A program made the position numbers and the translations under genes. A DNA stretch of 64,000 bases. Source: Ostreococcus lucimarinus (taxonomy: Eukaryota). How positions within the stretch are numbered: the first letter of the stretch is position 1; each line of letters starts with the position of its first letter. The notes beneath the pieces are model-generated. The model saw nothing but the letters and a program-made list of their open reading frames with translations. It did no database searches and was not told where the DNA came from. Location: NCBI GenBank assembly GCA_000092065.1, contig CP000581.1. One strand, given 5' to 3'. Shown in pieces: positions 28,827-58,000 of the stretch.

Positions 28827-29858
28827 TCATAGCTCGGCTTCCGCGAAGACTTGCGCGTCGTCGTCGTCAAACGCCTCGGGAGACCACGCAATACCCGCGG
28901 TCGCCACGTCGTCAGGTACGCGACCACCCATGCGTTCTATCGATTCGCTTAATCGCTCGATCGCGAGCGATTTCGATTTATCGCTTTGACTCAAAGCCTC
29001 GATCATGCGCCTCGCTCGATGAACGCCTCTAGTCATTTCCTCCTTTTCGCGGATCGATTCCAGCAGTTGCTCCGCCAACGCAGCGACGAACGGATCGCTC
29101 GGCGTCGCACCCGACATCAGAAACGATCTATACTGTTCGATCATGTCCTCACGAATTCGATGCGCTATTTGATCCACCTCTGCCGCCTTTTGAGTCGAAC
29201 GAACGTGCTCGCTCCACTCGCGAAGTCGGTGCGCCGATTCGTCCTCGTCTCCCGCGCCTTCGTCCTCCATCGTCATCGGCGGCGCCGACGCCGTCTCCGG
29301 GCCTTCTAAGCCGTCATCATCGACTAACACGCGCCTCGGTGGCCCTATGGGCGACGCCGATCGTCGAAGACCGCTCGGCGACACGATGCGAGGCGACGAC
29401 GCCGGCGACGAACCCGCGCCGCCGGGCGACGACGCGGCGCCACCGAATTCGCGCCCTCGTCGCGTCGTCCCGCTCTCCGGCGACGCTCCGACGGCGATGG
29501 AAATCTCTCGCAGCGCTTCCGCCACGCGCGCGAAGCTATCGACGGTCACGCGTCCATCCGGTCCTCGGCGCACGAGCTCGAGCGCCGCTCGCACCTCCGG
29601 CGTCGTCTCCGCCAGCGCCTCCAGGTGTTTCAGCGCCGCGTCCACGCTCGCGTGCGCGTCCGCGTCGTTCGTCGCGTCGGCGCGCGCGCTCGACGGCGCG
29701 TACTGCGCCCGCAGGCGGTCGCGCGGGGAGGATGCGTGTTCGAACTCGCGTTCAAATTTGCCGGCGGAAACGTCGACGGTGTGCGGCGGTGCGACGTACG
29801 GACGCGCGGGCGACGCGCGCGCGCGCAGGTTTTCCATGCGCTGTCTCAAGTTTTCCAT
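28827..29858 (-). CDS. Hypothetical protein (acidic, predicted helical); 5' boundary uncertain
   Basis: ORF 28827..30137, but its first ~90 codons would overlap the 3' end of the Mpv17 gene. Start taken at the Met at 29858 (MENLRQRMENLRARAS...). C-terminal DDDDAQVFAEAEL. No recognisable domain. Confidence 0.4.
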   Translation of the reverse strand: MENLRQRMENLRARASPARPYVAPPHTVDVSAGKFEREFEHASSPRDRLRAQYAPSSARADATNDADAHASVDAALKHLEALAETTPEVRAALELVRRGPDGRVTVDSFARVAEALREISIAVGASPESGTTRRGREFGGAASSPGGAGSSPASSPRIVSPSGLRRSASPIGPPRRVLVDDDGLEGPETASAPPMTMEDEGAGDEDESAHRLREWSEHVRSTQKAAEVDQIAHRIREDMIEQYRSFLMSGATPSDPFVAALAEQLLESIREKEEMTRGVHRARRMIEALSQSDKSKSLAIERLSESIERMGGRVPDDVATAGIAWSPEAFDDDDAQVFAEAEL

Positions 29859-29974
29859 CGCGCGGTCGATGCGAGCGCGCGCGCGCGGCGGAGTGTCGCG
29901 GCTCGAGTTCGGCGCGGCGGCGACGCGGCGCGTAACCGACGATATTACAATATTACGGGACGAGCGCGACGAAT

Positions 29975-30724
29975 CTATCGCTTCTTGGCGTTCTTGTTCG
30001 CCGCCGGCGCGGGTTTGTTCAGGTTGATGCTCAAGATGACGTTCCACACGATGGAACACGCGGACATGTACAACACCTGGTGCTTGGTCGGGACGAAGGC
30101 GAAGTTGACGCTCGACGCCGGCACCCAGAAGGACCAACCGGCGCGAAGCGTCGGTAAGGCGTCTCGGCGCACCTTGCCCGGATACTCAGCGACGGTGCCG
30201 CCCCAGATCGCTCCCCACAGAAAGAACGTCGTCACGACGATCGGCCCTAACACGGCTTGGTTTAAGAAGACCTTGGCCGCGAACGGCGAAAGCGATTCGG
30301 CGGTGAGCGCGAACGCGCGCGCCGGAAACTTTGAAGCCAGCGCGATGTACCAGTGATGCTGCACGGGACCGTAGAAGAAGAAGTTATACAACGCTTGTTT
30401 CAGCGTGCGCTCGAAGTCGTGCGCTTCGACGACCGGGGCGGCGTTTTTATTCTTCTTTGAACCGACGGCGTCTCGCGCCGCCGCGCGTCTCGCGCCCGCG
30501 TCCCGTTTCTGCGCCACCGTGTCCCCGACGCACCCGAGCGCCGCGCACACGAGCGCAGATTTCAACAACGGCTTACCTTCGATCGCGTTGATGACATCTT
30601 TAGCCCCAGCGCGCGCGCGCACGCTTCGCGACGCGCGCTTGTTCGCGTCGAAGTGTCCCTTACCGTTGGACGAAAACGGCGAACGACCGCGGCCGAACGA
30701 CGACGACATCGGACCGAAGCGCAT
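29975..30724 (-). CDS. Mpv17/PMP22 family membrane protein
   Basis: FLNQAVLGPIVVTTFFLWGAIWGG...AGWSFWVPASSVNFAFVPTKHQVLYMSACSIVWNVILS is the conserved Mpv17/PMP22 core. Confidence 0.8.
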   Translation of the reverse strand: MRFGPMSSSFGRGRSPFSSNGKGHFDANKRASRSVRARAGAKDVINAIEGKPLLKSALVCAALGCVGDTVAQKRDAGARRAAARDAVGSKKNKNAAPVVEAHDFERTLKQALYNFFFYGPVQHHWYIALASKFPARAFALTAESLSPFAAKVFLNQAVLGPIVVTTFFLWGAIWGGTVAEYPGKVRRDALPTLRAGWSFWVPASSVNFAFVPTKHQVLYMSACSIVWNVILSINLNKPAPAANKNAKKR

Positions 30725-30882
30725 GTCGAGACGGTATCACGCGTTCGTGTCTTTCCGCGACGAGCGCTGTTTCGCTCGTTCGCGGCGATCGCGCCGAGGA
30801 ATGCCGCGCGGAAGCTCCTGGACCGCGCGTCGTCCCGATGGGACAAATGTGCACTTTTTGGACACTTCGTCGTTCGACGCGC

Positions 30883-31149
30883 TCAGCCGCCGCTGATCGG
30901 CGGTACGACCGCGAGCTCGTCTCCAGGCTTCAGCGCGGTGTCGGCCTCGCGCGCGCGGTCGACGTAGGACTGGTTCAGCGCGAACACGGCGGTGAGAAGG
31001 ACGGACTCGAGCTGAGGGTAGAGCTCGAGCAGACGCGCGCGCGCCGTGGCGACGGTCGGTGAGGCGTCGGCGTCAAGATCGACGGACGCGGACGATGTTT
31101 CGGCGAGCTCGCGCGCGCGGGCGAAGAAGAGGACGGTGATGGTCGTCAT
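30883..31149 (-). CDS. MoaD/MOCS2A-type sulfur-carrier protein (molybdopterin synthase small subunit), ends in GG
   Basis: 88 aa: MTTITVLFFARARELAETSS...YVDRAREADTALKPGDELAVVPPISGG. The MoaD fold signature (FFA..RE, C-terminal PP.SGG) is present. Confidence 0.65.
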   Translation of the reverse strand: MTTITVLFFARARELAETSSASVDLDADASPTVATARARLLELYPQLESVLLTAVFALNQSYVDRAREADTALKPGDELAVVPPISGG

Positions 31150-31320
31150 GGTTTGACGTTCGAGCGCGGGCGCTGCGCGCGAGGAGCGCTTCTACGAATC
31201 GAAAGATACATCACAACGATCGCGACCTCGAGGATTCAACGATTTGCTATTCGTTCGCTTTGAACGCTATTAATAATGTTTATGTATGGCAACGGTGCCG
31301 CGCGCGGCTTGGCGCGGGGT

Positions 31321-33723
31321 TCACTTTTCCGACGCGCCGTACCCACCCTGCTCGGCTTTCAACAACGACGATCCCACACTCGGTTCGTTGCCCGATTCCA
31401 ACTCATCGTCGTATTGTTCGCCTTCGAGCTCTGGGAACAAGCAAAAGTACAGTTCAATGAGAATCAAGACGAAGCAGAGCGAAAAACAAAACATCGCCGC
31501 GAGTTGCAGCGTCGACGTCAAGTCGAGTCCAAAGATTTCAAACTTGAACGGCGTGATCAAGCCCTTTCCGTTCGGAAGCACGAGGACATCGTCGGGTTCC
31601 AAGTACACGTCATCGCCGCGCTTCACACTCCACTTTTTTGTGGAGCCAGCGACGCAGGATCTACCATCCGTCAGCGGATAATTTTGCTCCGTGTACAAAC
31701 CGCACGTGCCGTACCCGCCTTCGCCGAGCTCCATGGAGAGCTTGGCATATCCATCTTCGCCCCAATCCGAGTCGTACGAGTTCTTCATTATCCAATACCC
31801 TTGTTTCGACTGCTGGTCGTAGCCCCAGCCCACTAAAACAGCGGCGTGGTTAATTGCGAGAAGCGGGTCGCTATCCGCCGGCGGGCAGTCGTGTAGGCGC
31901 ACGATGCCGCCGCCATACAACTGCAGCGGTTTGATGTTCACGCCGACCGCCACCGTTTGCTGCTGCAGCGCACGCATGAGATTGATGAGCGTCGATTCCC
32001 CCTCTAAAGGTGGGATTTCGCAGTATCCATCAATCTTCACGCCTCGCGACTGATCCGATTTTACCACCTCGCAACTGCTTCCTTCGGGGAAATCGGTGGC
32101 GACAAGTACGCCTTTAGGCTGCACATTGATCCACGCGTACGCCGTGGCCATGTTCCCAGTGTTGCATGCCGAGTCCAGGTTGTCACACGACAACAAATGA
32201 TACGGGCTGACAGCCATGCGAGAGCCCGTCGCAATCGCCTTGCTATCGCCAACAACTTGAGCGGTGGTGAACGCCCAGCATCCAGAGCACATCCCCTGAC
32301 TATAAATAGGACCAATATCTATCTTTTTGCGCCAATCCATGGACTCATTAAATCCTTGGGAAGTGAATTCAAATTTTCCGAGCGAGCCGACGGCGTCAAA
32401 CGCGTCGTCGCGGCGATGACGAGCTGAGCTGCTGAAGGAAATCCGCGAGCGCCGGGAGTGCGGCCGAGTGGCGTGCAACGCGGCAACGTCCTCAGCGGAC
32501 AAATCGCCCAGTTTCGGCAATCTCACGACGTTGCTATCCTCAACTGTCGCGTTTGCATACGTGGCGTGATCACGCGCAAACTCGTCACTTTCTAAATCAG
32601 CAAAGCGCGTCACGCGCTTAATCATGCCCCCTCGCTTGTTCGTCGCCTCGATGTCTCTCAAATTCTTCAAAAACACCGTCTGCCTTCGAAAAGCCTCGCC
32701 GCACGGGTACGATTTATCCGCGCAATACGTTTTCTGCTTCCCGTAACGAGCGACGAAATCGACGAACCGCCTATCTAAACCATCCTTTTTGCCAAGCCGC
32801 GCTTCATCCGCTTCGTCCGTCGGCGCCTCGACGGACGGCGTTTGCTTCTCCTTTTCCGCCTCGTTGTCCACAACCTTAGCTCGCACCACCTTCGCCCGCT
32901 TCGCGTTCGCATCGACGTTCGACTTTTCTACCGTCGACGCTTCCGCGGATTGCGGGTTTTTGCTCTGATTCGCTGCCGACTTCGCCTTGGTCGGCTTGAC
33001 GCCCAACGCCGCGACCTCGACGCCGCGCTTCTTGTGATGCGTTCTTCGCTCGTACGCCACGTGCCTTTGCTCAAACTCCTCCTCAGTCAAATCAGCGAAC
33101 TTGCCAACGCGCATGCGCATCCCATTTGGCGGTACATTCGCGTTATGTGCGTCCACCTTGGCCACGTTTGCCTCGAAAATCCTCTCCCTTCGCAGACTCT
33201 CCTCGCACGGCAGTCGTTCCTCACCGCAATACCTCTTCGCCCGTTCCCCGTGACGCGACAACCACGCCAAAAACCGATCACCGTGTCGCGCCGGCGCATC
33301 GACGCCGTCCCGATCGTCCCCACCCGCGTCCGTTCGCGTCGTCGTCGTCGCTTCCGCGTCGTCCGTCTTCAACACCCTCTCGGTCGCCCCGAGTTCGATC
33401 GCATCCTTCCTCTTCACCCGCGCCGCTTCGTCCAGCGCCTGCGCCCAGACGCTTCCCGGGATTATGAGTTCGTTCTCGATCGCCGCCGCCGCGCGCACGT
33501 CCGGGTCGATCAACGACGCCGCGGTCTCGCCCTTGACGTAGTGTCCAAAGCTCAGCAGCGGGGCGTCGGCGTCGACGTCGTCGGCGCTCGCGACGGCGCG
33601 CGCGACGGCGTCGATCGCGATCGCGACGATCGCGATTGTTTTGACGGCGCGCGCGGCGAAGCGCGCGCGGCGACCGCGGCGCATCGCGCGCGGGCGTGTG
33701 CCGACGATCAAAATCAAAATCAA
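31321..33723 (-). CDS. Papain-family (C1A) cysteine protease with two tandem I29 propeptide-inhibitor domains and a C-terminal TM anchor
   Basis: 800 aa. Catalytic QGMCSGCWAFTTAQVVGDSKAI. Two I29-like units (RFLAWLSRHGERAKRYCGEEE...RIFEANVAKVDAHN; RFVDFVARYGKQKTYCADKS...TVFLKNLRDIEATN). C-terminal hydrophobic AAMFCFSLCFVLILIELYFCLF followed by an acidic tail. N-terminal signal/anchor. Confidence 0.8.
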   Translation of the reverse strand: MILILIVGTRPRAMRRGRRARFAARAVKTIAIVAIAIDAVARAVASADDVDADAPLLSFGHYVKGETAASLIDPDVRAAAAIENELIIPGSVWAQALDEAARVKRKDAIELGATERVLKTDDAEATTTTRTDAGGDDRDGVDAPARHGDRFLAWLSRHGERAKRYCGEERLPCEESLRRERIFEANVAKVDAHNANVPPNGMRMRVGKFADLTEEEFEQRHVAYERRTHHKKRGVEVAALGVKPTKAKSAANQSKNPQSAEASTVEKSNVDANAKRAKVVRAKVVDNEAEKEKQTPSVEAPTDEADEARLGKKDGLDRRFVDFVARYGKQKTYCADKSYPCGEAFRRQTVFLKNLRDIEATNKRGGMIKRVTRFADLESDEFARDHATYANATVEDSNVVRLPKLGDLSAEDVAALHATRPHSRRSRISFSSSARHRRDDAFDAVGSLGKFEFTSQGFNESMDWRKKIDIGPIYSQGMCSGCWAFTTAQVVGDSKAIATGSRMAVSPYHLLSCDNLDSACNTGNMATAYAWINVQPKGVLVATDFPEGSSCEVVKSDQSRGVKIDGYCEIPPLEGESTLINLMRALQQQTVAVGVNIKPLQLYGGGIVRLHDCPPADSDPLLAINHAAVLVGWGYDQQSKQGYWIMKNSYDSDWGEDGYAKLSMELGEGGYGTCGLYTEQNYPLTDGRSCVAGSTKKWSVKRGDDVYLEPDDVLVLPNGKGLITPFKFEIFGLDLTSTLQLAAMFCFSLCFVLILIELYFCLFPELEGEQYDDELESGNEPSVGSSLLKAEQGGYGASEK

Positions 33724-33788
33724 ATGACTTTCGGGGTGTTGAGCTTTTTGAGACGAAGGCGCGCCGAGCTACGATTTCAGTCGTCTTC

Positions 33789-35481
33789 TTACAATTCTGA
33801 GTCTACGATGGGCGCTAGCGCCGCTCGAGCGTCTTCGATGACGCGATTCAAGTCGTGCGGGGCGCCGGCGATGAGCCTGGCGAAGGCGCGGACGAGGAAT
33901 GGGGCGGCGGCGTCGAGGTAGGCGCGGACGCACGCGAGGAAGGCGGCGCGCGCGCGGTCGTCTCGAGCCGCGGATGCATCCTTGGATTGGCCGTGCGCGA
34001 GCAAGGAGGCGGTGGCGCGGCTGAACGCAGACTCGAGGGAACGTGCGAGCCGAAGGTTGAGCTCGAGGGCGGGGGTGAGGTGTCGAAGCTCGTTGTACGC
34101 CAAGAGGACGCCGTTGACGAAGGCGGCGAGCGGGACGTGATCGGCCAACGTCGCGGGCGGACCCTCGACGTTATCGCCTGCCTCTGTTTTCGCAGCCAAA
34201 GGTGTGGATTCAGCGGTGGACGATGCCGCCGTCCATGTCGCCGATGCGAGCGCGCGCTCGAAATCATCACCCGCGGAAGCGAGCGCGGCGTCGAAGACGG
34301 CCATCGCCGCGTCGCCGAACACAGGGCGCAACAGCGGCCTCGTGTCCAATCCCACGCGCGCCAAGCTCGTGCCGCAATACTCGCAGTGCTCGTACACCGA
34401 CGCCAGCGCTCCACCTTCGTACACGCGCGGAAGCGTGGCCTTGACTAAGTCCAAATATTTGGAGATCCTATGCGTTGCCCAGCTGTACAACAACGCGCCG
34501 CCGTCTTCGCCCGCGTCGTCACCCGCTTCGTCTGAAAATATCGCCCTATACTGCATGACGACGTCGAACAGCGACACGCGATGGGTGTCCGTGAGCTTTT
34601 TCAAGTACTCGTATGCGTTCGTGTCATCCAACTCCCCGACCGTATTCGCGATGTACTCTTCTCGGCACGCCAAAAACGTCCTGCGCAGCGTCGTCTCGTC
34701 GTACGCGCTCAAACGCCTCAAATACCCCACCATCCGCAAGCACTCCGGCAACTGTATTCCCACTCGCAACCGCGCTAACAATGCTCGCAACATCTCCGCA
34801 CTCGACGCCCGCGCCTCGTCCGCTAACCTCTTCACCAACGCAATATCCCCGTGCGTCGCTTCCATCTTCGCCACGAAATTTTCCAAATCCAGCGCCTCGT
34901 CGTAGTGCCCGTTCCGCACGCACGCATCCAGCAACTTCGGCACCTCCAGCAATTCCGCCACCGCCCCAGAGTTATTCATCAGCGTCCGATTCATCGCTCG
35001 CGCTTTCGCGATCTCTTTCGCGCCTTTCACGAATCCATCGCATCCGCGCTTCAAATCCGGCAGTTGCGCCTCGAGCGTCTCCAACAGCGTCGCCGCGTCC
35101 TTCACCTCCGCCCTCACCGCCGCGTAGCACGCCGCGGCGTCGATGTACGCGCGGTAGTTTCGGACGCTGACGTCTTCAAGTCGTCGTTTAGCGCGCGCGG
35201 CGTCCTCTTCGAGTCGTTTGGGTTCCTACGCCGCGGAAAGATCATCACTCGTCAGTGGGCGGTCGGGACATTTCGTGAGATTTCGTCAAAGAATGCGTCG
35301 TCGCGCGCGCGTGGGCGAGCGCGCGCACCTCCGCGAGGTTCTCGACGCCGCGAGAGAGTAGCTGTGCGACGTAAGTCGCGTCGGAAGGGTGGCTCGACGT
35401 CATCGAGCGCGCGAGGCGCGACTTGAAGTGAGGATTACTGGACGCGCGAGGCGAGCTCGTCGGGGCGCGCGTCGGACTCAT
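33789..35481 (-). CDS. COG8: Conserved oligomeric Golgi complex subunit 8 (COG8/Dor1), two exons: 33789..35225 and 35329..35481
   Basis: Exon 2 carries LLEVPKLLDACVRNGHYDEALDLENFVAKME (compare COG8 [26 protein letters not shown]). Upstream exon MSPTRAPTSS...SDATYVAQLLSRGVENLAE is joined through GT(35328)...AG(35226), a 103-nt intron, to EPKRLEEDAARAKRRLEDVSVRNYRAYI, reproducing COG8 GLERLRREPERLAEEAAQL...NYKTFI. Both exon frames are open and in phase 0. Confidence 0.75.
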
Positions 35482-35575
35482 CGATGTCAAAACTCGTTGT
35501 AAATTACACACTAAGCGCGCGCGCTGTAAAAATGAAAGATATAAGTAAGTAGTAGTAGGCAAAGAGGGAGAGAGA

Positions 35576-38290
35576 TTACAGGAGAGTGGCCCAAGCCTTG
35601 GCGGGCTGGACGCCGCGAGGGGCGTCGGCGGCGCCGCCGGTAGCGAGGGACGGAAACGCCTCCTCGCATTCGACGACTGGGACTCTCGTTTTGCCTTTAC
35701 GCGAACGAACGCGCTTGGTCTTGGACTGTGCGTTTGATGAATCGTTCCCGGCGGCGGAATCGTCGGACTGCGGGGTGATGGTGTGCTCCCCGGGAGACCC
35801 TTCCATCGGCGAGGACTGGGAGGAGTCTTCGGCGACGAGCGCTGGCGTCTTGGGGCGATCGTCCACGACGGGTTTCTCCGCGTTGGCCTTGAGAACGTCG
35901 ATAGGTGCTGATCCTTTCGGACCCCACGAAGGCTTTACCGTCGATGGCGTCGCCGCCACGTCGTCAAGCGAAGCCGAAGATGTATCCGTCAACGCGACAT
36001 TGACAGCCAGCTTGTCCTCGATGTCTTTTTTCAGCATGGCCGCCATCGTGACTGCTTTGTCTTCCTCGCTCGTCGGCTGCTCGTTCATGAACTTGGCCGG
36101 AAGCTTTGCGACTCCGCTCCACGCTTGTGGAAACGTGGGCGACGGCCTCGGCGATCGAGTTCGCCGCGGCGCGTCATCCTCGATCGAGGATGACGCCTCT
36201 TTGGCTGGATCGACCTCTTTGGCTGGATCGACGTGCGGAAAGTGCGCGCTCATATCCTCGAAAACAGCAGTAGAGTTGTTGTCGCTCGCGTAACCACGCT
36301 TCGCCGTGCCCAGTGGCGGCACTCCCGGAGGAGGAGGTGGTGGAACAGCCGATTGGAAACTTTGTTGCGCCGCGCTCTTGCTCGCCTTGTTGCTCCTAGA
36401 CGCGTTTCGAGAACGGTTGTACGGAGGACGATTACCGTTGCCTCGTCGATTATTGTTGTTGGAACTTCGACGCCGGTCATCACCACTTCGTCTTGCCGCG
36501 ATCGTTCGCTCGTGCGCGCGTCGGTGGTGGAACACACCAAAAGCCAAATGCTCACGAATGGTGTCAAGACATCCGGTAAAGATGTCATTGATGCCCGGCG
36601 CGGTGGCGTCCTCGGGGATGGGCGGCTGCTTACTATCTGCACCATCGCACGAGTCGTGCTGTTCGCCAGAATCGTCCGAAAAAAAACTCTGAGGCGGTGA
36701 TGTGGACATTTGCGCGCTGTCGTCGTCGATTGATCGTCGCTCGTCACTCGTCGGAACTCGCTGCTCATCCCCGAGAGCGTCCCAGCGACCCCAGTGGATG
36801 CCGCGCTCTTGTTCAGAGAGTGAACCCATGGACTCGCTTCGCTTGTGAAGACCGCCGCGCTCTGGCGAGGGTGGATCGCCGAGCGTGGGCCAATGGTTCG
36901 CCGCGACGGCTGACGACTCGTCGGCTTCCGCGTCCTTCGACTCCGAGTCTTCCATGTTCAGCTGTCTCGGTTGTAACTCGTCCACGACCGAGCGCGTGTG
37001 AGGATGCGTCGCGAGCGCGGTCGCCGGTGTCGTGCCTTCGACGAGGCAGCTTCTCGAACGTAAAGCGATGGCGCTTGTCGGCATTCCCATGGGCGTCATT
37101 GAAACCTCATCGGCGTGCGAGCATCCCCCCGGCGTGTCCGGCGCGTGCGGAAGCGGGTAAAGTAAACGCCTGTGACGTAAGATGTTCCCAAACATTTCCA
37201 CGAACCCTCGCAACACACCGACGTCATCGCGCGCCGCAGAAGAGGCCATCAGCGCATCCAGACGTTGCGCTCCAAGCTTGAGCGCCGCGCGCACGCGTCT
37301 ATAATTGCCGCAAGATACAGAGCGGCCTAAGTTGTTATTGGGTAAAAGAGGATCGATGATGTTCATGTACTTCACGGTCACGGGCGCTGAGCTCGCCGCC
37401 GCGCGCATGAACTCGCAACTGTACGTCGACAACATCGTCCGCATGAACTCTTCGGTGATCAAACCACCCTCCAGACACTCGTCGGGCGGCGTCGCGATGC
37501 CCTCGATCGCCACCGGTCCGTGAATCGTGAGCGCGTAGCCTTCCCAATCAAACTCGGCGAAAACGCTCAAAAGCTTGTGCAACACGGACAACGGGCACGT
37601 CAAGTCGGCGTGATACTTGTTGATGATGTACAAAACGAGCGTCTCCAACGCGTACGTGGAAATCAAGGCGTGATGCGCTCCTAAGATGCGCCCCTCGTAA
37701 AATCCCCAAGCCTTGACGAGAATGATCGAGCGCACGAACAAATCGTCCCTACCGATGAACGCGTTCATCTCTTCTAAAAATCCGAGCGACGCCAAGCCAC
37801 CAAACTGATTGGCGCTCACGTCCACCATCATCCCGTCCACGATGCACTTCATCAGCCGTACCTCTGCGTTGATCACGCTCACCTCACTCACCGCGAACTC
37901 GTGGGGCGGATCCGCCTCCGCCTCCGCCTTCTCGATGTGTTTCCTAAACTTGGTCGTCCACTGCGCCTTATCGATCACGCGATGATCACCCAGCAAGCAC
38001 ACGTCGATGTCGCCGTCCGGAAGATACGCCCGCAGCGGCACGCTCCCGTACGCGCTCACCAGCGTGTGCGCCGTCCCGAAGCACTCCTGCGCCAACTGTT
38101 TGATGTGCTCAAACACCGCCCGTCGCCGAATCTCGCTCATCTCCGTCGGCCGCAGCGACGCCACGAGCTCGTTCGTCAGCGTCTCCAGTCCGCCCGCGTC
38201 CCCGCTCGCGCTCGCGCGTCCGCTCCCCGCGCTCCGCTCCCGTTTCGCCCCTCCCGGCGCGCGTTCGCTCGCGTACGGGCACCTCGACAT
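35576..38290 (-). CDS. Nucleotidyltransferase-fold protein (Pol-beta-like NTase + PAP/OAS1 substrate-binding-like region) with long low-complexity C-terminus
   Basis: GSVPLRAYLPDGDIDVCLLGD is the GS...D.D NTase motif, followed by a region resembling the PAP/OAS1 substrate-binding domain. The C-terminal ~450 aa are S/R/N-rich. Confidence 0.55.
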   Translation of the reverse strand: MSRCPYASERAPGGAKRERSAGSGRASASGDAGGLETLTNELVASLRPTEMSEIRRRAVFEHIKQLAQECFGTAHTLVSAYGSVPLRAYLPDGDIDVCLLGDHRVIDKAQWTTKFRKHIEKAEAEADPPHEFAVSEVSVINAEVRLMKCIVDGMMVDVSANQFGGLASLGFLEEMNAFIGRDDLFVRSIILVKAWGFYEGRILGAHHALISTYALETLVLYIINKYHADLTCPLSVLHKLLSVFAEFDWEGYALTIHGPVAIEGIATPPDECLEGGLITEEFMRTMLSTYSCEFMRAAASSAPVTVKYMNIIDPLLPNNNLGRSVSCGNYRRVRAALKLGAQRLDALMASSAARDDVGVLRGFVEMFGNILRHRRLLYPLPHAPDTPGGCSHADEVSMTPMGMPTSAIALRSRSCLVEGTTPATALATHPHTRSVVDELQPRQLNMEDSESKDAEADESSAVAANHWPTLGDPPSPERGGLHKRSESMGSLSEQERGIHWGRWDALGDEQRVPTSDERRSIDDDSAQMSTSPPQSFFSDDSGEQHDSCDGADSKQPPIPEDATAPGINDIFTGCLDTIREHLAFGVFHHRRAHERTIAARRSGDDRRRSSNNNNRRGNGNRPPYNRSRNASRSNKASKSAAQQSFQSAVPPPPPPGVPPLGTAKRGYASDNNSTAVFEDMSAHFPHVDPAKEVDPAKEASSSIEDDAPRRTRSPRPSPTFPQAWSGVAKLPAKFMNEQPTSEEDKAVTMAAMLKKDIEDKLAVNVALTDTSSASLDDVAATPSTVKPSWGPKGSAPIDVLKANAEKPVVDDRPKTPALVAEDSSQSSPMEGSPGEHTITPQSDDSAAGNDSSNAQSKTKRVRSRKGKTRVPVVECEEAFPSLATGGAADAPRGVQPAKAWATLL

Positions 38291-51754: not shown

Positions 51755-52708
51755 ATGTCGCTGCCGACGCACCGCGCGCGCGACCTCGCGGGCGCGCACG
51801 ACGGCGCCGTCCTCGCCGCGCGCTTCTCGCGCGACGCCGCGCACTGCGTGACGTGCGGGCGCGACCGCGCGTTCGCGCTCTGGAACGCGCGCAAGGGGAC
51901 GCTGCTCCGAGTGTACCGCGGCGGACACGCGCGAGAGGTTCGCGACGCGTCGTGCGCGCGAGACGGCGCGCGAATCGCCACGTGCGGCGGCGACCGAGGC
52001 GTGTTTCTGTGGGACGTCGCCACGGGGGCGAGCGTGCGACGGTGGAGCGGACACGAGGGCGAGGGAGGCGCGAACGCGACGGCGCTGTGCGGACCGGGGG
52101 ACGCGCTGTGCGCGAGCGCGGGGTACGACGCGAGCGTCAGACTGTGGGATTGTCGAGCGAGCGGCGCGAGGGCGATGCAGGTGATGCACGCGCGCACGGG
52201 AGTGGCGTTCGGGGACAGCGTGACGAGCCTGAGCGTGGACGAGGACGGGGCGAAAATCGCGGCGGGGTGCGTGGACGGATGCGCGAGGACGATTGATTTA
52301 AGAAACGGGAAATGTCACGTCGACAGCGTCGGCGCGCCGGTGACGAGCGTGTGCTTCAGTCACGATAAACAGTGTTTGATCGTGGGGTGCCTGACCTCGC
52401 GCGTCGCGCTGCTCGATTGCGCGAGCGGGAACGCGATGGCGACGTATCGCGGGCACGTCGCCGAGCGCGCGAAAACCGAGTGTCGATTCTCAAATACCGA
52501 CGCCCACGTCGTCGCGTCCTCCGAAGACGGCCGCGTGGTGTTTTGGGATTTAGTCACGGGCGACGTCGTGCGCGAGCTTCAGGCCCACGACCGATCCACG
52601 GTGGTGTGCTCGATCGATTACGCCCCGGAGGGCGCCGAGCCCGCGATGGCGACGTGCGCCGCCGACGGTACGGCGCGGTACTGGACCGCGCCACCAACCA
52701 CACAATAG
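51755..52708 (+). CDS. WDR83: WD40-repeat protein WDR83/MORG1 homolog
   Basis: 317 aa, aligns end-to-end with MORG1 (...CVTCGRDRAFALWNARKGTLLRVYRGGHAREV...VVASSEDGRVVFWDLVTGD...). Confidence 0.8.
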   Translation: MSLPTHRARDLAGAHDGAVLAARFSRDAAHCVTCGRDRAFALWNARKGTLLRVYRGGHAREVRDASCARDGARIATCGGDRGVFLWDVATGASVRRWSGHEGEGGANATALCGPGDALCASAGYDASVRLWDCRASGARAMQVMHARTGVAFGDSVTSLSVDEDGAKIAAGCVDGCARTIDLRNGKCHVDSVGAPVTSVCFSHDKQCLIVGCLTSRVALLDCASGNAMATYRGHVAERAKTECRFSNTDAHVVASSEDGRVVFWDLVTGDVVRELQAHDRSTVVCSIDYAPEGAEPAMATCAADGTARYWTAPPTTQ

Positions 52709-52733
52709 ACGCGTAAACTCGCTGCACATTGGC

Positions 52734-52757
52734 TGTAAATTGTACATATCGCTGTAA
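52734..52757 (+). promoter_or_regulatory. Two TGTAA motifs (52734-52738, 52753-52757) 26-50 nt after the WDR83 stop
   Basis: ggctgtaaattgtacatatcgctgtaacatcg. The local sequence is AT-richer than the flanks. Confidence 0.35.
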
Positions 52758-52890
52758 CATCGCCCATCTTCGCGCGCCCATCTTCGCGCGCGCGCCGCGT
52801 CTCGCCGCCGACGAAAATCAACCGAAAAACGCCGCCGCCCGCGCGCCGCCCCATCATCCGCCAGACGCCGCCGCGCCCGCGCGCGCGACG

Positions 52891-53520
52891 ATGCGCGCGA
52901 CGCCGCGCGCGCGCGGGGCGTCGAAGCGCGACGACGCGGACGCGCGACGCTCGACGCGCGCGACGCGCGCGCGGCGTTTGGTGGTTTTCCGACGCGGCGC
53001 GTACAAAGGTTTAAAGGAAAAACCGCCGTTTCGCACGACGTGGGACGTGCCCTGCGAGCGCCTGGACGTCAAGCTCGGACACCGCGACGGGACGGCGTCG
53101 CGGTTCGGGTCGATCGTCACCGTGTCGTGCGACGTCGAGCCCGTGGGGGCGCACGGCTTTTTTCTCGCCGCCGCGATTCGCGGCGCCGTCGACTGCGCGT
53201 GCGCGTCGTGCGGCGTCGTCTTCGCGCACGCGCTTCCGGAACACCGCGACGACGGCGACGACGACGATGACGTCGTCGTCGTCGACGCGCCGTGCGCGTT
53301 CACCGCTTGGCTCGATCCAGATTTCGTCTCCACCGCGGACGGCGCGTCGAGCGCGAGCGGCGACGCCGAGGTGTTCCCGTTCCCTCCCTCTCGCGACGCC
53401 GTCGATCTCACCGATCTCGTCGTCGACACGATCGACGCCTTCGGCGTGCCCGACGAGTGCGTGTGCGACGCCTGTCGCGCCGCCGAACCGCGCGCGTGGT
53501 CCACCGAGCGCGCGATGTAA
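52891..53520 (+). CDS. DUF177/YceD-like protein (plant homologs are plastid proteins needed for 23S rRNA accumulation)
   Basis: C-terminal DAVDLTDLVVDTIDAFGVPDECVCDACR matches the DUF177 D..DL...V.D.I.L..P...LC...C motif. Start taken at MRATPRARG (52891) because the 5' part of ORF 52729.. covers the WDR83 3' UTR containing TGTAA. Confidence 0.55.
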   Translation: MRATPRARGASKRDDADARRSTRATRARRLVVFRRGAYKGLKEKPPFRTTWDVPCERLDVKLGHRDGTASRFGSIVTVSCDVEPVGAHGFFLAAAIRGAVDCACASCGVVFAHALPEHRDDGDDDDDVVVVDAPCAFTAWLDPDFVSTADGASSASGDAEVFPFPPSRDAVDLTDLVVDTIDAFGVPDECVCDACRAAEPRAWSTERAM

Positions 53521-53604
53521 AAAAAAAACAATCGACGCGACGCTTCGCGTCCCGAGGTCGACCTCGGCGACGCTTCGGCGCGGCGTCAGATTCGGGCGCG
53601 CGCG

Positions 53605-54786
53605 ATGACGAGCGCGTACCGCGCGCTCGCGTTCGCGGCGCACGGCTACAGGGCGTACCTCGGCGACGCGTTCGAGCGCCTCAGGCTGCCGGCGCTGCCC
53701 GAGCGCGACCTGAGCGGCGCGGAGTGCGTCGTCACGGGCGCGAACCAGGGCATCGGATTCGAGGTCGCCGGCGCGCTCGTCGAGCGCGGCGCGCGCGTGC
53801 ACTGCGTGTGCCGGGACGAGGCGCGCGGAAGCGCGGCGGTGGAGGCGCTGAACGCGCGCGCGAGCCAGACGGGACGCGGACGCGGACGCGCGGAGCTGCA
53901 CGCGTGCGATCTGAGCTCGCTCGCGCAGACGCGGCGGTTCGTCGAGCGGTACACGGCGAGCGGACGAGCGCTGCACGCGCTGGTGTGCAACGCGGGAGCG
54001 ATGGTGCACGAACGAGGGAACACGAGCGAGGGATTCGAGCGGAACTTCGCGGTGAACACGCTCGGGACGCACGTCCTCGTCGCGGGGCTGCGGCCGGTGC
54101 TGGGACGCACGGCGCAGGGGGACGCGAACCTGGAGGGCGAGGGAGGGTACTACGCGCCGAGGGTCGTCGTCGTGTCGAGCGCGGGGATGATGACGGAGCC
54201 GCTGGAGGTGAAGGATTTGGAGATGCGGAGGACGAAGAAGTTTGACGGGGTGAAGCAGTACGCGCGCGGGAAGCGACACCAGACGGCGATGATGGAGCGT
54301 TGGGCGCGATTGGAGCTAGAGAACGTGGGCGAGGAGCGCGTGAAGAGCGGAAGGGGATACGTGGGGTATTATTCCATGCATCCGGGGTGGGTGGCGACGA
54401 CCGGGGTGGCGAACGCGTTGCCGAAATTTTACGCGTCCATGGCGGGGAAGCTTCGGACGACCGCGCAGGGCGCGGATACGATTCTCTACCTCTTGACGGC
54501 CGGGACGGAAGACTTGCAACCGGGAGCGTTTTACTTCGATCGTGCTCCCGTGGCGAAGCACATCACCTGCGGGTTCACGCGGTACGAGCCGAAGCAGGTG
54601 GACGCCCTCGTGAGCAAGCTCGACGCGTTGCAGGCGGAAGGTTCCGTGCGGAGCGAAAAGAACCTTCTCAAAGCGTCTGGCTCGTTTACGAAGGGCTCGG
54701 CGACTAAGGACGCGTCGACCAAGGACGCTTCGCCGTCGAGTGAGACGAAGACGAAACGCAGCAATCCGTCGTGGAACATTCGATGA
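53605..54786 (+). CDS. Short-chain dehydrogenase/reductase, DHRS12-like
   Basis: CVVTGANQGIGFEVAGALVERGARVHCVCRDEARG. NAGAMV. YARGKRHQTAMMERW. 393 aa with the extended C-terminus typical of DHRS12. Confidence 0.75.
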   Translation: MTSAYRALAFAAHGYRAYLGDAFERLRLPALPERDLSGAECVVTGANQGIGFEVAGALVERGARVHCVCRDEARGSAAVEALNARASQTGRGRGRAELHACDLSSLAQTRRFVERYTASGRALHALVCNAGAMVHERGNTSEGFERNFAVNTLGTHVLVAGLRPVLGRTAQGDANLEGEGGYYAPRVVVVSSAGMMTEPLEVKDLEMRRTKKFDGVKQYARGKRHQTAMMERWARLELENVGEERVKSGRGYVGYYSMHPGWVATTGVANALPKFYASMAGKLRTTAQGADTILYLLTAGTEDLQPGAFYFDRAPVAKHITCGFTRYEPKQVDALVSKLDALQAEGSVRSEKNLLKASGSFTKGSATKDASTKDASPSSETKTKRSNPSWNIR

Positions 54787-55088: not shown

Positions 55089-58000
55089 CTAGCGGCCAAT
55101 CGGCGGTGGGCCCGCGGAAGGGGATCCGCCGGTATCGAGACCGAATTTCTTTGCCTGTTGGTTTACCGCGATGGTGACGTACGCGCCGATGAAATCGTTG
55201 ATGATGAACACGGACAAACCAGCGAACATGCCGATGAAGAGCAGACAGCAACCGACGATGAGAATCTTTCGAAGCATCTCTGGGCCCAGAATTAAAGAAA
55301 GCGATCCGAGCGGGTCCATGAGACTCAATCTCGCGCGCACCGGTTCTCTGAGTTCCGGATCTCGGTTCGGCGCATCGCGCCCGGCGCCGACGGGCCTGAC
55401 TTCAGCTTTGCGCACCGGCATGAGTGAGAGCATTATCTCCACCTCGCCTTGGCACTCGTTGGGCTTGCTCGGGTGATACAACTTCAACCACCTTCCTTCA
55501 GCCGCGCCGTCGAAGATGTTGAAAGTCGATAAACTGTCTGTGAAAGACGACTTAAACTCCACAGTCGCCTCGGTGGCCAACTCTCCATCAGGCGAGTTGT
55601 CCACCGCGCGCATGAGCTGTCGGCACATGCCCGTCAATGGAATCGTAACTTCCCCGATGGCATCGTTAGCGCTGAACAAATCTCTGTCGTACGCTGAGAT
55701 TCGCAAAGCCCCTCGAGCGATCGGAAGCTCAAACCTGAAGATGTTTCTAAAGTTGAAGCTGCCTCGACCATCCGTGGCGAACCAGTGCGTGTCGGTTTCT
55801 TGCGCCTCCGTGAAGCGAGTTTGCGTCCTATCGAGACCGACGAGGGTAAGCTTGAAGAACAAGTCATTTTTACCACCGACATCTTTGTTCATGACTTTTC
55901 GCGCGCCAAACGTGACGCATCGAAGTTCAACTTCCATCACCGGAGGCGGCTGCAACGGAAACGCCGGCGGAGGCGCGTCGTGACCTTCATGGATCTCAAC
56001 GAACATTTCTAAAAAGCCTTGTGGAGTGTCGCTGTCCGGAAGAAGTAACGGTCTCATCTCCAGTGGTGGCGTTTCAGAGAGGTTTTGCACCCACACTGGG
56101 GAGAAGAATCTGTCCTCGATGTCGATGGAGCACGTGCCCAATAATATATCCTTGCCTCTCTTTTCCCAATCGTACACGTTGATGTCTACGATGGAGTCAC
56201 CAGGGACGTCGGTCTGAAACTGGAAAACCTTGTAAAACCACGGCGAAAGAGTTCGTTCGACTCGATCTTCACGCTTACCGTAACGCTTCTTCAAACCACG
56301 TTGATTGACGATGAGATACGGATCGCACAAACCCGTCGGGTCGGACGTTCGAAGGTCTCTTCCGCGAATCACGTACACGCGAACCGTGACCTCCGTTGGT
56401 GCGGAAGCCAAATCGCCTCCTCCCGCAATTCGCTGTACTTCAAGAAACTCATCTTTACCCATGGTTGCGAAATCTTCCTCTGGTTCCCATCTCGCCATCT
56501 CTTCCTCGTGAATTCTATCCAGGCGCCTCTTCTTTTCCTTCTTGTTCAGCGCCTCCTTGAGAGCTCTTTTTCGGTTGACCTTATTTTCGAGAAGGTTTTC
56601 TGCGACAAAACTCGTGTCTTCCCGAAGTGGTACGCTTCGGATGGCAACCTTGACGACACCCGCGAGTTCTTTTTCAGATGTGTTGTCCGCGAATCCTTTC
56701 GCATGGTACACTGGGATGGACATGAACTGCAAGGGCCGCAGCTCGTCCTCGAGTAAGCCGCCTGCGAGGATCATTCGGCCCTCCATCCAAATCGGGAGCT
56801 TACCGGTGCCGTCGTCAAAGGTGATGGCGTCTTGTTGCTCCGCATCGGAGTCACTCGATTCTTCTTCCACCGACTCCGCGTCATCGTTGTCGTCCTTCGA
56901 CGTACTACTGCCGAGGTCGTCGCTATCGCTCTCGCTGCTGGCGTACGACTTTTCCGTCTCCGTCCCGCTAATTTCAGTCTTGTCCGAGTCTGACTCGGAA
57001 GAATCTGGACGCTCGACTTCTTTGATAGACATCAGCTGATTTTTAGACTTGCGTCTTTCCTTACTGAAATCTTCAAGCGGAATGTATTTCCGCTTGCCAT
57101 CCATTGAGCGAATCATGTGATAACCCGCGGCAGACTCCGGCTCCGTCAATTTTTTTCCCTGTTTTTGCCCTTTTTGCATAGACTTCGAACTCGCCAATCG
57201 CGACATCTTACTCTTAGAGCTACCCAGCATGCTTGTCGACTGGTTTATAGCTGTACTCGACCGTTTCATGGATCCACTTTTATTCTTAAAAGTAACACTC
57301 GCGCCGAATAACTCAGAGTCGTCGTCGGCGTCGCTGAACTCGTTTGTGACTGTGTCAGAGTCGTCCTCGTACAAAGTAGTGTTCGTACCGAAAGTTCTCT
57401 CCGACTCGGATACAGTCGCGGACATCTCCGCCATGAGCTTCTCGCGAATCTCGTCTGGAGTCAATTTACGAATCTTGACTGACTTCAGTTTACTCACGAA
57501 TTCAGCCTCTTCGACTTTTTCGGAATCGCGGACACGAAGTGCATGCTCGGCAGTCGCGATGATGTGCGTCGAACTGTTCCGACCATCCATCACACGGATG
57601 GATAAACTGAGACGGACTTTATTGAGCCTCGTCATCATTCCGCTCAGTCTGAGAATCTCTCCCTTGAAGTTTGCGTTCGGTCCGTTTGGATACATTTGCT
57701 GACGTGTTCGTGCGAGATGAGCGCGCGAACCAAAGTACAAGGGCGTCACACCGTTGAGCTCAAACTCGACGCAAGGACGATGGACTGGAGTACCTCTGTA
57801 AGGTGTCAACCCGCGCACACCCAACACAACGAGCTCTACTGCGATAGCGGTTGCGCCGTAATGGTCCTCGAGCGGACGTACTGCAGAGTTGAGCCTCATC
57901 AACGCGAGCGCCTTGAAGGAAGAGTCTGCGACACCGGCGTACGCTGCGATGCCTTCCTTGGGCATCGGTAACAACTCATAAAACATGAGAATGTAACCGC

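Follow-up and report, generated by a model that had tools for sequence, protein, structure and literature searches.

How is a papain-like protease held inactive and placed in the cell when its catalytic domain is preceded by two propeptide-inhibitor units and followed by a hydrophobic helix? The question is raised by positions 31321-33723 (minus strand) of a 64,000-nucleotide stretch of Ostreococcus lucimarinus contig CP000581.1, the whole of which is called the window here. The textbook C1A zymogen has a single prodomain. The gene at this locus encodes a cathepsin-L-like protease with tandem prodomains, a stalk and a membrane anchor, probably of type-I topology. It is confined to the Mamiellophyceae lineages sampled and built from parts that are all known. 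From its N-terminus the protein carries a signal-peptide-like segment, I29 unit 1, an A/K/V/E-rich spacer, I29 unit 2, a Peptidase_C1 domain, an extension of 51 amino acids (aa), one transmembrane (TM) helix and an acidic tail of 37 aa.

A C1A catalytic domain preceded by two I29 units

The initial annotation placed a C1A catalytic domain with the motif QGMCSGCWAF behind a duplicated I29 propeptide, and this reading holds. The motif was found at about window position 32289, the domain scored 131 bits with its catalytic residues intact, and Pfam returned one Peptidase_C1 domain and two Inhibitor_I29 stretches. When each unit was scanned as a separate piece, both exceeded the gathering cut-off of PF08246 (24.4 bits). 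Lack of profile support for the first unit had been named as a possible refutation; this unit is the stronger Pfam match of the two. A charged spacer between the units had also been described, and its 65 residues (229-293) include 12 A, 10 K, 8 V and 7 E. NCBIfam gave no match for the protein.

31321..33684, minus strand: complete coding sequence, 787 aa from the first ATG plus stop; the open reading frame (ORF) extends to 33723 through an upstream TTG
33052..33297, minus strand: I29 unit 1, residues 130-211 (PF08246, 44.8 bits, E=1.6e-11)
33207-33230, minus strand: Cys153...Cys160 loop of unit 1, YCGEERLPC, a Tyr-Cys-x6-Cys insertion between helices 1 and 2
32806..33000, minus strand: spacer 1, residues 229-293, A/K/V/E-rich, predicted disordered (pLDDT <50, see below)
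32557..32805, minus strand: I29 unit 2, residues 294-376 (PF08246, 30.8 bits, E=3.7e-7)
32703-32726, minus strand: Cys321...Cys328 loop of unit 2, YCADKSYPC, a Tyr-Cys-x6-Cys insertion between helices 1 and 2
31675..32349, minus strand: Peptidase_C1, residues 446-670, ORF residues 459-683 (PF00112, 131.1 bits, E=8e-38)
32278-32280, 31846-31848 and 31780-31782, minus strand: catalytic Cys469, His613 and Asn635, which together with Gln463 are all present

The region is a single unbroken ORF of 800 aa counted from TTG. Its first ATG, at ORF residue 14, starts a 787-aa protein (33684..31324, minus strand) whose stop codon lies at 31321-31323; residue numbers refer to this protein unless ORF numbering is stated. 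A protein called on a 68-kb marine metagenome contig (P0001) differs from it by 3 residues and has the same neighbour genes. The two genes differ by 3 nucleotides and a synonymous/non-synonymous comparison is therefore uninformative. The nearest named relatives of the protease are Ostreococcus tauri proteins, and the close spacing of genes on one strand and a G+C of about 60% in the window agree with that genus. The gene is real and intact. A gene-fusion artefact was considered and rejected.

The Peptidase_C1 match spans profile positions 2-219 of 220, with a cut-off of 20.7 bits. Q463, C469, H613 and N635 are the same residue in 105-106 of 107 papain-family sequences. The protein also has the six Cys needed for the three canonical papain disulfides, and the catalytic and disulfide columns are conserved in 93-107 of the 107 sequences. 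Tyr takes the place of papain Trp177, and NSY instead of NSW follows the catalytic Asn. Judged by its residues, the papain-type catalytic centre is intact. In sequence, the solved structures that match best are those of plant papain-like proteases, triticain-alpha and EP-B2 among them (E~1e-28).

Both units carry the signatures of the family. Unit 1 has an ERFNIN-type motif, E-x3-R-x3-I-x3-N-x3-V-x3-N (E-ESL-R-RER-I-FEA-N-VAK-V-DAH-N), followed by GKFADLT and a trailing HVAY. Unit 2 has E-x3-R-x3-V-x3-N-x3-I-x3-N (starting E-AFR-R-QTV-F), TRFADL (TRFADLE) and an invariant HATY. Aligned with each other, each with about 25 following residues, the units share 34% identity across 104 aa (E=3e-18). 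Because this alignment extends past the I29 core, via the H-x-x-Y segment, to Leu-Gly, the duplicated element is the whole prodomain and not the helical core alone. The Cys-x6-Cys insertion, probably a small disulfide loop, has no counterpart in the Pfam I29 consensus; all C-terminally anchored relatives share it, and among the orthologues it is invariant.

Structure prediction was performed with AlphaFold2 (AF2). The full-length model made with an 11-sequence family alignment was unusable, with a predicted local distance difference test score (pLDDT) of 42.5 and a catalytic domain below 50. A construct covering residues 125-760 (636 aa) with a 107-sequence alignment gave a pLDDT of 79.5 and a predicted template modelling score of 0.66. 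In this model the catalytic domain reaches 93-98, the helices of unit 1 94-98 and unit 2 91-96, and the spacers stay below 50. One I29 of the model overlays a zymogen prodomain, at about 2 A over 271-282 residues.

A conserved stalk, transmembrane helix and acidic tail

A hydrophobic helix and an acidic tail had been proposed to follow the catalytic domain, on condition that they did not lie in an intron or untranslated region. Both are coding: the ORF includes them, and their protein sequence is conserved in three genera. The helix is predicted by AF2 and has a Kyte-Doolittle mean of 2.5 over 19 residues within 722-750. The tail begins PELEGEQYDDELESGNEP.

31522..31674, minus strand: juxtamembrane extension or stalk, residues 671-721, LTDGRSCVAGSTKKWSVKRGDDVYLEPDDVLVLPNGKGLITPFKF, as conserved as the catalytic domain
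32020-32022, minus strand: extra catalytic-domain Cys555, which co-occurs with stalk Cys677
31435..31521, minus strand: TM helix, residues 722-750, LTSTLQLAAMFCFSLCFVLILIELYFCLF, Kyte-Doolittle peak 2.53
31324..31434, minus strand: acidic tail, 37 aa, presumed cytosolic, PELEGEQYDDELESGNEPSVGSSLLKAEQGGYGASEK, with a di-leucine and a near-terminal Tyr-Gly
31360-31365, minus strand: Leu774-Leu775, at least 90% conserved

These C-terminal 124 aa (stalk, TM helix and tail) have no significant match in Pfam or among PDB sequences. The stalk is predicted by AF2 to form beta-strands (pLDDT about 90-97). Cys555 and Cys677 are both present in 26 and both absent in 78 of 107 sequences, and only 3 are discordant; two of these, which lack the stalk Cys only, are taken as truncated gene models. 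This co-occurrence suggests a Cys555-Cys677 disulfide that would staple the stalk to the enzyme.

The AF2 helix occupies construct residues 598-625, that is protein residues 722-749. Across Ostreococcus, Micromonas and Bathycoccus the helix keeps Cys733, Cys737, Cys748 and an intramembrane Glu744 without exception; relatives with a single I29 have plain Ala/Val-rich TM helices without this Glu/Cys pattern. Conservation of the Glu and Cys residues suggests a membrane partner, oligomerisation or a lipid modification such as palmitoylation.

The polar tail that follows the helix measures 33-69 aa in Ostreococcus, Bathycoccus and M. pusilla and 20-38 aa in other Micromonas. Y782 and G783 are invariant in the Mamiellophyceae orthologues. 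A distal LL is found in most tails of the family, and seven single-I29 relatives carry the canonical form [DE]xxxL[LI].

Orthologues and age of the duplication

A word-indexed search returned 26 relatives. A profile search of 1.84 billion cluster representatives gave 23,092 papain-family matches, of which the top few belong to the same family. A family I29 model, a pattern for the catalytic motif and a hydropathy scan were applied to the 272 sequences retrieved; the label Bathycoccus or Bathycoccus-like denotes a genus judged from sequence character. All full-length orthologues from Ostreococcus, Micromonas and Bathycoccus-like sources have two I29 units, one catalytic Cys and a C-terminal TM helix. 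They include OUS42409.1 ('cysteine protease-5') and XP_003074628.2 from O. tauri, and the M. pusilla CCMP1545 cluster. Pfam detected two I29 stretches in 5 of 6 orthologues tested (O. tauri, two Micromonas and two Bathycoccus); unit 2 of M. pusilla falls below the Pfam per-stretch threshold and was detected by the family I29 model. Reference annotations of the O. tauri orthologue read only 'Peptidase C1A' or 'cysteine protease-5'.

The two units fall into distinct clades in a neighbour-joining tree, each clade spanning the genera, which indicates that the I29 duplication is older than the split of Ostreococcus, Micromonas and Bathycoccus. Region by region, identity within Ostreococcus and across the three genera, respectively, is as follows.

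Unit 1: 0.66 and 0.40
Unit 2: 0.68 and 0.44
Spacer 1: 0.16 and 0.09
Catalytic domain: 0.83 and 0.66
Stalk: 0.80 and 0.67
TM helix: 0.79 and 0.37
Tail: 0.57 and 0.17

These regional identities point to a similar constraint on both I29 units, with spacers free to vary. The spacers of the Bathycoccus-like orthologues (P0019-P0026) are 180-400 aa long, low in complexity and rich in Lys, Glu, Ser and Asn; these proteins total about 1200 aa and keep all folded modules.

Outside the Mamiellophyceae orthologues, the closest membrane-anchored relatives are marine proteins with a single I29. The next-best relatives (P0031, P0032, P0034 and P0047) and more distant ones (P0038, P0039, P0041, P0042, P0044 and P0046) come from uncultured marine eukaryotes. 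Like the protease, the single-I29 marine proteins have a Cys-x(4-8)-Cys loop in the I29, a HATY-type segment, NSY for NSW, a stalk motif C-x-x-G-S-x-x-K, the Cys555/Cys677 pair, a C-terminal TM helix and a di-leucine tail; they differ in having one I29 only. Since they share these features, the protease is best seen as a tandem-prodomain branch of a broader C-terminally anchored cathepsin-L-like clade.

Two abundant marine C1A families, P0048 (607 aa, 217 cluster members) and P0041 (524 aa, 47 members), have a Cys-loop I29 and a C-terminal TM helix. Their N-termini look Mamiellophyceae-like and they may be paralogues in the same algae. The I29 of P0048 is apparently split by an acidic insertion.

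The N-terminus and putative processing sites

33583..33684, minus strand: signal-peptide-like residues 1-34, MRRGRRARFAARAVKTIAIVAIAIDAVARAVASA, with an Arg-rich n-region, a hydrophobic core and A-S-A before D35
33298..33582, minus strand: N-terminal region, residues 35-129, no recognisable domain, conserved within Ostreococcus only
33001..33006, minus strand: Leu227-Gly228 in VAALG, after unit 1, putative processing site
32506..32511, minus strand: Leu392-Gly393 in LPKLGDLS, after unit 2, putative processing site
32377..32382, minus strand: Leu435-Gly436 in VGSLGKFEF, putative maturation site, 13 residues upstream of the DWR motif

Residues 9-35 have a Kyte-Doolittle mean of 1.7-1.9, the orthologues share the same type of N-terminus, and we infer a putative signal peptide that may be cleaved before D35. 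Residues 35-129 have no Pfam match and no match among PDB sequences, and pairwise identity there falls from 0.30 within Ostreococcus to 0.06 between genera. Likewise, nothing significant was found for the inter-unit spacer in Pfam or PDB sequence searches.

Within the otherwise unconserved stretch that follows unit 1, A225, L227 and G228 are invariant or nearly so. The DWR motif (D450) marks the start of the catalytic domain, and in the family an S/T-LG lies from a few to about 15 residues upstream of it. The Leu-Gly sites are plausible autoprocessing points because Leu at P2 fits the S2 pocket of papain-type enzymes.

A proposed zymogen and its alternatives

We consider it fairly probable that the protein is a cathepsin-L-like C1A zymogen, tethered to the membrane in type-I orientation and bearing two tandem prodomains, and that it is inhibited, sorted and processed as follows. 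The N-terminal signal peptide would direct it to the endoplasmic reticulum, leaving the prodomains and the protease lumenal and the tail cytosolic. Unit 2, which adjoins the catalytic domain, would be the cognate intramolecular inhibitor and folding aid, as in procathepsin L and propapain. Unit 1 would be an accessory I29, either a second lock or, once freed, a propeptide-like inhibitor of the CTLA-2, BCPI, crammer or salarin type. The di-leucine of the tail would route the precursor to an acidic compartment, endosomal or vacuolar, where the proregion would be cut at the conserved Leu-Gly sites. The active enzyme would then stay tethered to the membrane through its stalk, probably disulfide-stapled. 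Like the initial annotation, we infer a regulated, surface- or vacuole-tethered protease.

Several points weigh against this proposal. The literature searched contains no experimental or expression data on the protein or its orthologues. The N-terminus was judged by hydropathy and the A-x-A motif only, and could be an uncleaved signal anchor. The di-leucine of the protein reads SVGSSLL, has no acidic residue at -4 and falls outside the canonical [DE]xxxL[LI] class; the conserved LL may nevertheless function like the adaptor-sorted class despite failing the strict motif. The proregion spacers of 17 family members contain 48 Leu-Gly dipeptides at aligned positions against 13.5 expected by shuffling, counts that are non-independent, the sequences being related, and indicative only. 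Dibasic clusters (KKR, RRSR and RHRR) near the Leu-Gly sites fit a kexin-type convertase equally well.

The membrane reached by the protein is a first matter of choice. The same polypeptide could be a plasma-membrane ectoprotease, not a vacuolar or lysosomal enzyme, facing the outside of the wall-less cell. Its substrates would then be proteins of the cell surface or the surroundings, and it might for instance serve to scavenge nutrients, take part in shedding, or act in encounters with viruses or mates. Type-I topology puts the protease on the exoplasmic side of any membrane it reaches, the di-leucine is non-canonical and is missing from 2 of the 3 Micromonas lineages sampled, and the C-terminally anchored EhCP-B enzymes of Entamoeba have been proposed as surface proteases (PMC1913524). 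A surface location is nonetheless unlikely in our estimate, given that the distal LL is kept in most tails of the family and takes the canonical [DE]xxxL[LI] form in seven relatives. In plants and animals such di-leucine motifs typically direct endosomal or tonoplast sorting, and removal of an I29 prodomain normally requires an acidic compartment. The conserved distal di-leucine speaks for an endosome or vacuole rather than the cell surface. The anchor itself leaves little room for another reading. Glycosylphosphatidylinositol (GPI) attachment signals terminate in a hydrophobic stretch; in the orthologues a conserved polar tail of 20-69 aa follows the helix and includes the invariant near-terminal Tyr-Gly. 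The segment is moreover part of an uninterrupted ORF and conserved between genera. Although a GPI anchor is predicted for some EhCP-B proteases of Entamoeba (PMC1913524), a GPI signal or an annotation artefact in place of a TM helix has in our view a negligible probability.

The second choice concerns the two I29 units. In the AF2 model it is unit 1 that takes the canonical zymogen pose, by elimination, and unit 1 also has the higher Pfam score (44.8 against 30.8 bits) and the higher pLDDT. It could thus be unit 1 that occupies the active-site cleft, or the units could bind in turn as a two-step lock, with unit 2 mainly a folding aid or spacer. This docking is very likely alignment-driven: 83 of 106 reference propeptides were placed on unit-1 columns, and we treat the pose as an artefact because the alignment assigned co-variation to unit 1 by construction. 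Across 11 orthologues the enzyme-contacting half (beta-strand, helix 3 and HATY/cleft segment) is invariant at 15 of 24 positions in unit 2, with the pattern GGM.K..TRFADL...EF...HATY, against 4 of 25 in unit 1, which is strongly diverged in Bathycoccus. The single I29 of the nearest outgroup retains the unit-2 version, MKKGLTRFADL..EF..HATY. Because of this near-invariance and the match to the outgroup, unit 2 is probably the cognate inhibitor and unit 1 the accessory one, and a cleft-bound unit 1 or a two-step lock appears quite improbable. That unit 1 is a decaying relic of the duplication, serving as linker only, is suggested by its variable post-helical segment and by the long branch of the Bathycoccus unit 1. 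It is however conserved like unit 2 (0.66 against 0.68 and 0.40 against 0.44, with true spacers at 0.09-0.16), it keeps its ERFNIN-type motif, FADLT and invariant Cys pair, and it has been present in all three genera since a duplication that preceded their split. The relic hypothesis is largely refuted and retains only a very slight probability.

The accessory role of unit 1 could be carried further. It is conceivable, if rather doubtful, that the gene encodes a combined protease and inhibitor precursor in which Leu-Gly cleavage frees the extra I29 as a trans-acting inhibitor, the protease itself defining a new clade of tethered cathepsins. If so, the freed I29 could regulate both the protease it came from and further C1A enzymes, in a lineage reported to be without cystatins. 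The clade would then be an undescribed algal/protist group residing permanently on a lysosome-like membrane and marked by a disulfide-stapled stalk, a TM helix with a conserved Glu and an adaptor-sorting tail.

As all its parts are known, the value of this protease is incremental and not fundamental. Picoplanktonic green algae of this order are nevertheless model minimal eukaryotes whose vacuolar or lysosomal proteolysis has barely been studied. A membrane-retained cathepsin with a second inhibitor domain would imply a distinct control of lysosomal proteolysis in cells reported to lack cystatins, and the protease would serve as a tractable marker of the algal acidic compartment. It also offers a natural prodomain duplication, kept since before the divergence of Ostreococcus, Micromonas and Bathycoccus, that is useful for asking what a second I29 contributes.

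Genomic context

The protease gene belongs to a run of six genes on the minus strand (28827-38290), separated by intergenic gaps of about 100-170 bp and accompanied by a further 336-aa protein downstream. The coordinates of its neighbours were mapped from gene calls on the matching contig. There is no second C1A gene within the window.

35576-38290, minus strand: poly(A)-polymerase/OAS1-like nucleotidyltransferase, same-strand run
between the nucleotidyltransferase and COG8/Dor1 in the gene list, minus strand: 78-aa ORF, same-strand run
33791-35107, minus strand: COG8/Dor1, same-strand run
30883-31149, minus strand: ThiS/MoaD-like protein, 88 aa, same-strand run
29975-30724, minus strand: Mpv17/PMP22, same-strand run
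28827-29837, minus strand: 336-aa protein with no Pfam match, after Mpv17/PMP22

Long antisense or overlapping ORFs of up to 359 aa, rich in Arg, Ala and Pro, occur in 29347-35426 (for example 32842-33921 on the plus strand). They are most likely by-products of a G+C content of about 60% and not genes. Elsewhere in the window, G+C drops within a few kb from 0.70 at 52001-54000 to 0.52-0.53 at 56001-60000, and the low-G+C stretch coincides with a 1892-aa ORF at 55089-60767 on the minus strand.

Comparison with known systems

Searches of the literature on papain-like proteases of Ostreococcus and the Mamiellophyceae, tandem I29 and C-terminally anchored C1A enzymes yielded no description of the present layout. 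Passages of a plant and algal C1A survey count nine C1A per Ostreococcus genome and no cystatins, and the passages searched mention neither TM anchors nor a tandem-I29 anchored layout (PMC2474614). Nor is the layout described in the passages searched of a 2023 survey of papain-family origins (PMC10380794).

Zymogens of the procathepsin L/propapain type have been solved (procaricain 1pci, pro-Amb a 11 5ef4, procathepsin H 6czs and triticain-alpha 8zlq) and consist of a signal peptide, one I29 and Peptidase_C1. The protease has the same catalytic fold and residues and the same ERFNIN/GNFD-type I29. It differs from them by its two I29 units, the Cys-x6-Cys loop in each, the long disordered spacers (65-400 aa in orthologues), the Cys555-Cys677 pair, the 51-aa stalk, the TM helix, the cytosolic tail and NSY for NSW.

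Tandem I29 units are not unique to it, since a fly protein with five I29 plus C1 and salarin-type proteins are known. Salmon salarin is a tandem propeptide-like inhibitor of four units. Among insects, a Thrips palmi protein has six I29 (P0065) and a 'salarin-like' protein of the fly Condylostylus has five plus C1 (P0070, XP_055387365.1). These multi-I29 animal proteins resemble the protease in their tandem I29, which in P0070 lies upstream of one catalytic domain; unlike it, they are soluble, lack a TM helix, stalk or Cys loop, have short linkers and arose by independent duplications. MEROPS family I29 comprises the free propeptide-like inhibitors CTLA-2, BCPI, crammer and salarin (PMC4089206). 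Salarin-type inhibitors have no protease domain, whereas here the catalytic domain is part of the same polypeptide, and unit 1 could act as a free salarin-like inhibitor only after processing.

There is precedent for membrane-anchored C1A proteases in Entamoeba and Plasmodium. Falcipains and Toxoplasma TgCPL have type-II topology and are membrane-bound through the prodomain. Their anchor is N-terminal and lost on maturation; the strong TM helix of the present protease lies C-terminally and would be retained after maturation. Falcipains and TgCPL resemble it as membrane-bound C1A zymogens with an inhibitory I29-type prodomain that are destined for an acidic digestive compartment; the falcipain-2 prodomain is the subject of PMC2682653. 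C-terminally anchored C1A proteases are likewise already known, in Entamoeba histolytica: the EhCP-B proteins are cathepsin-L-like pre-pro enzymes with a C-terminal hydrophobic TM or GPI anchor (PMC1913524). In contrast to the present protease they have a single prodomain, no specific relationship to it is detectable, and for several of them the prediction is a GPI anchor instead of a TM helix and tail.

Repeated I29 in one polypeptide are also found in the tandem-repeated cysteine protease of Symbiodinium (PMC6355014), and P0036, P0043, P0049 and P0050 are further (I29-C1)n polyproteins. In these each I29 has its own catalytic domain, whereas in the protease of O. lucimarinus two I29 units precede one.

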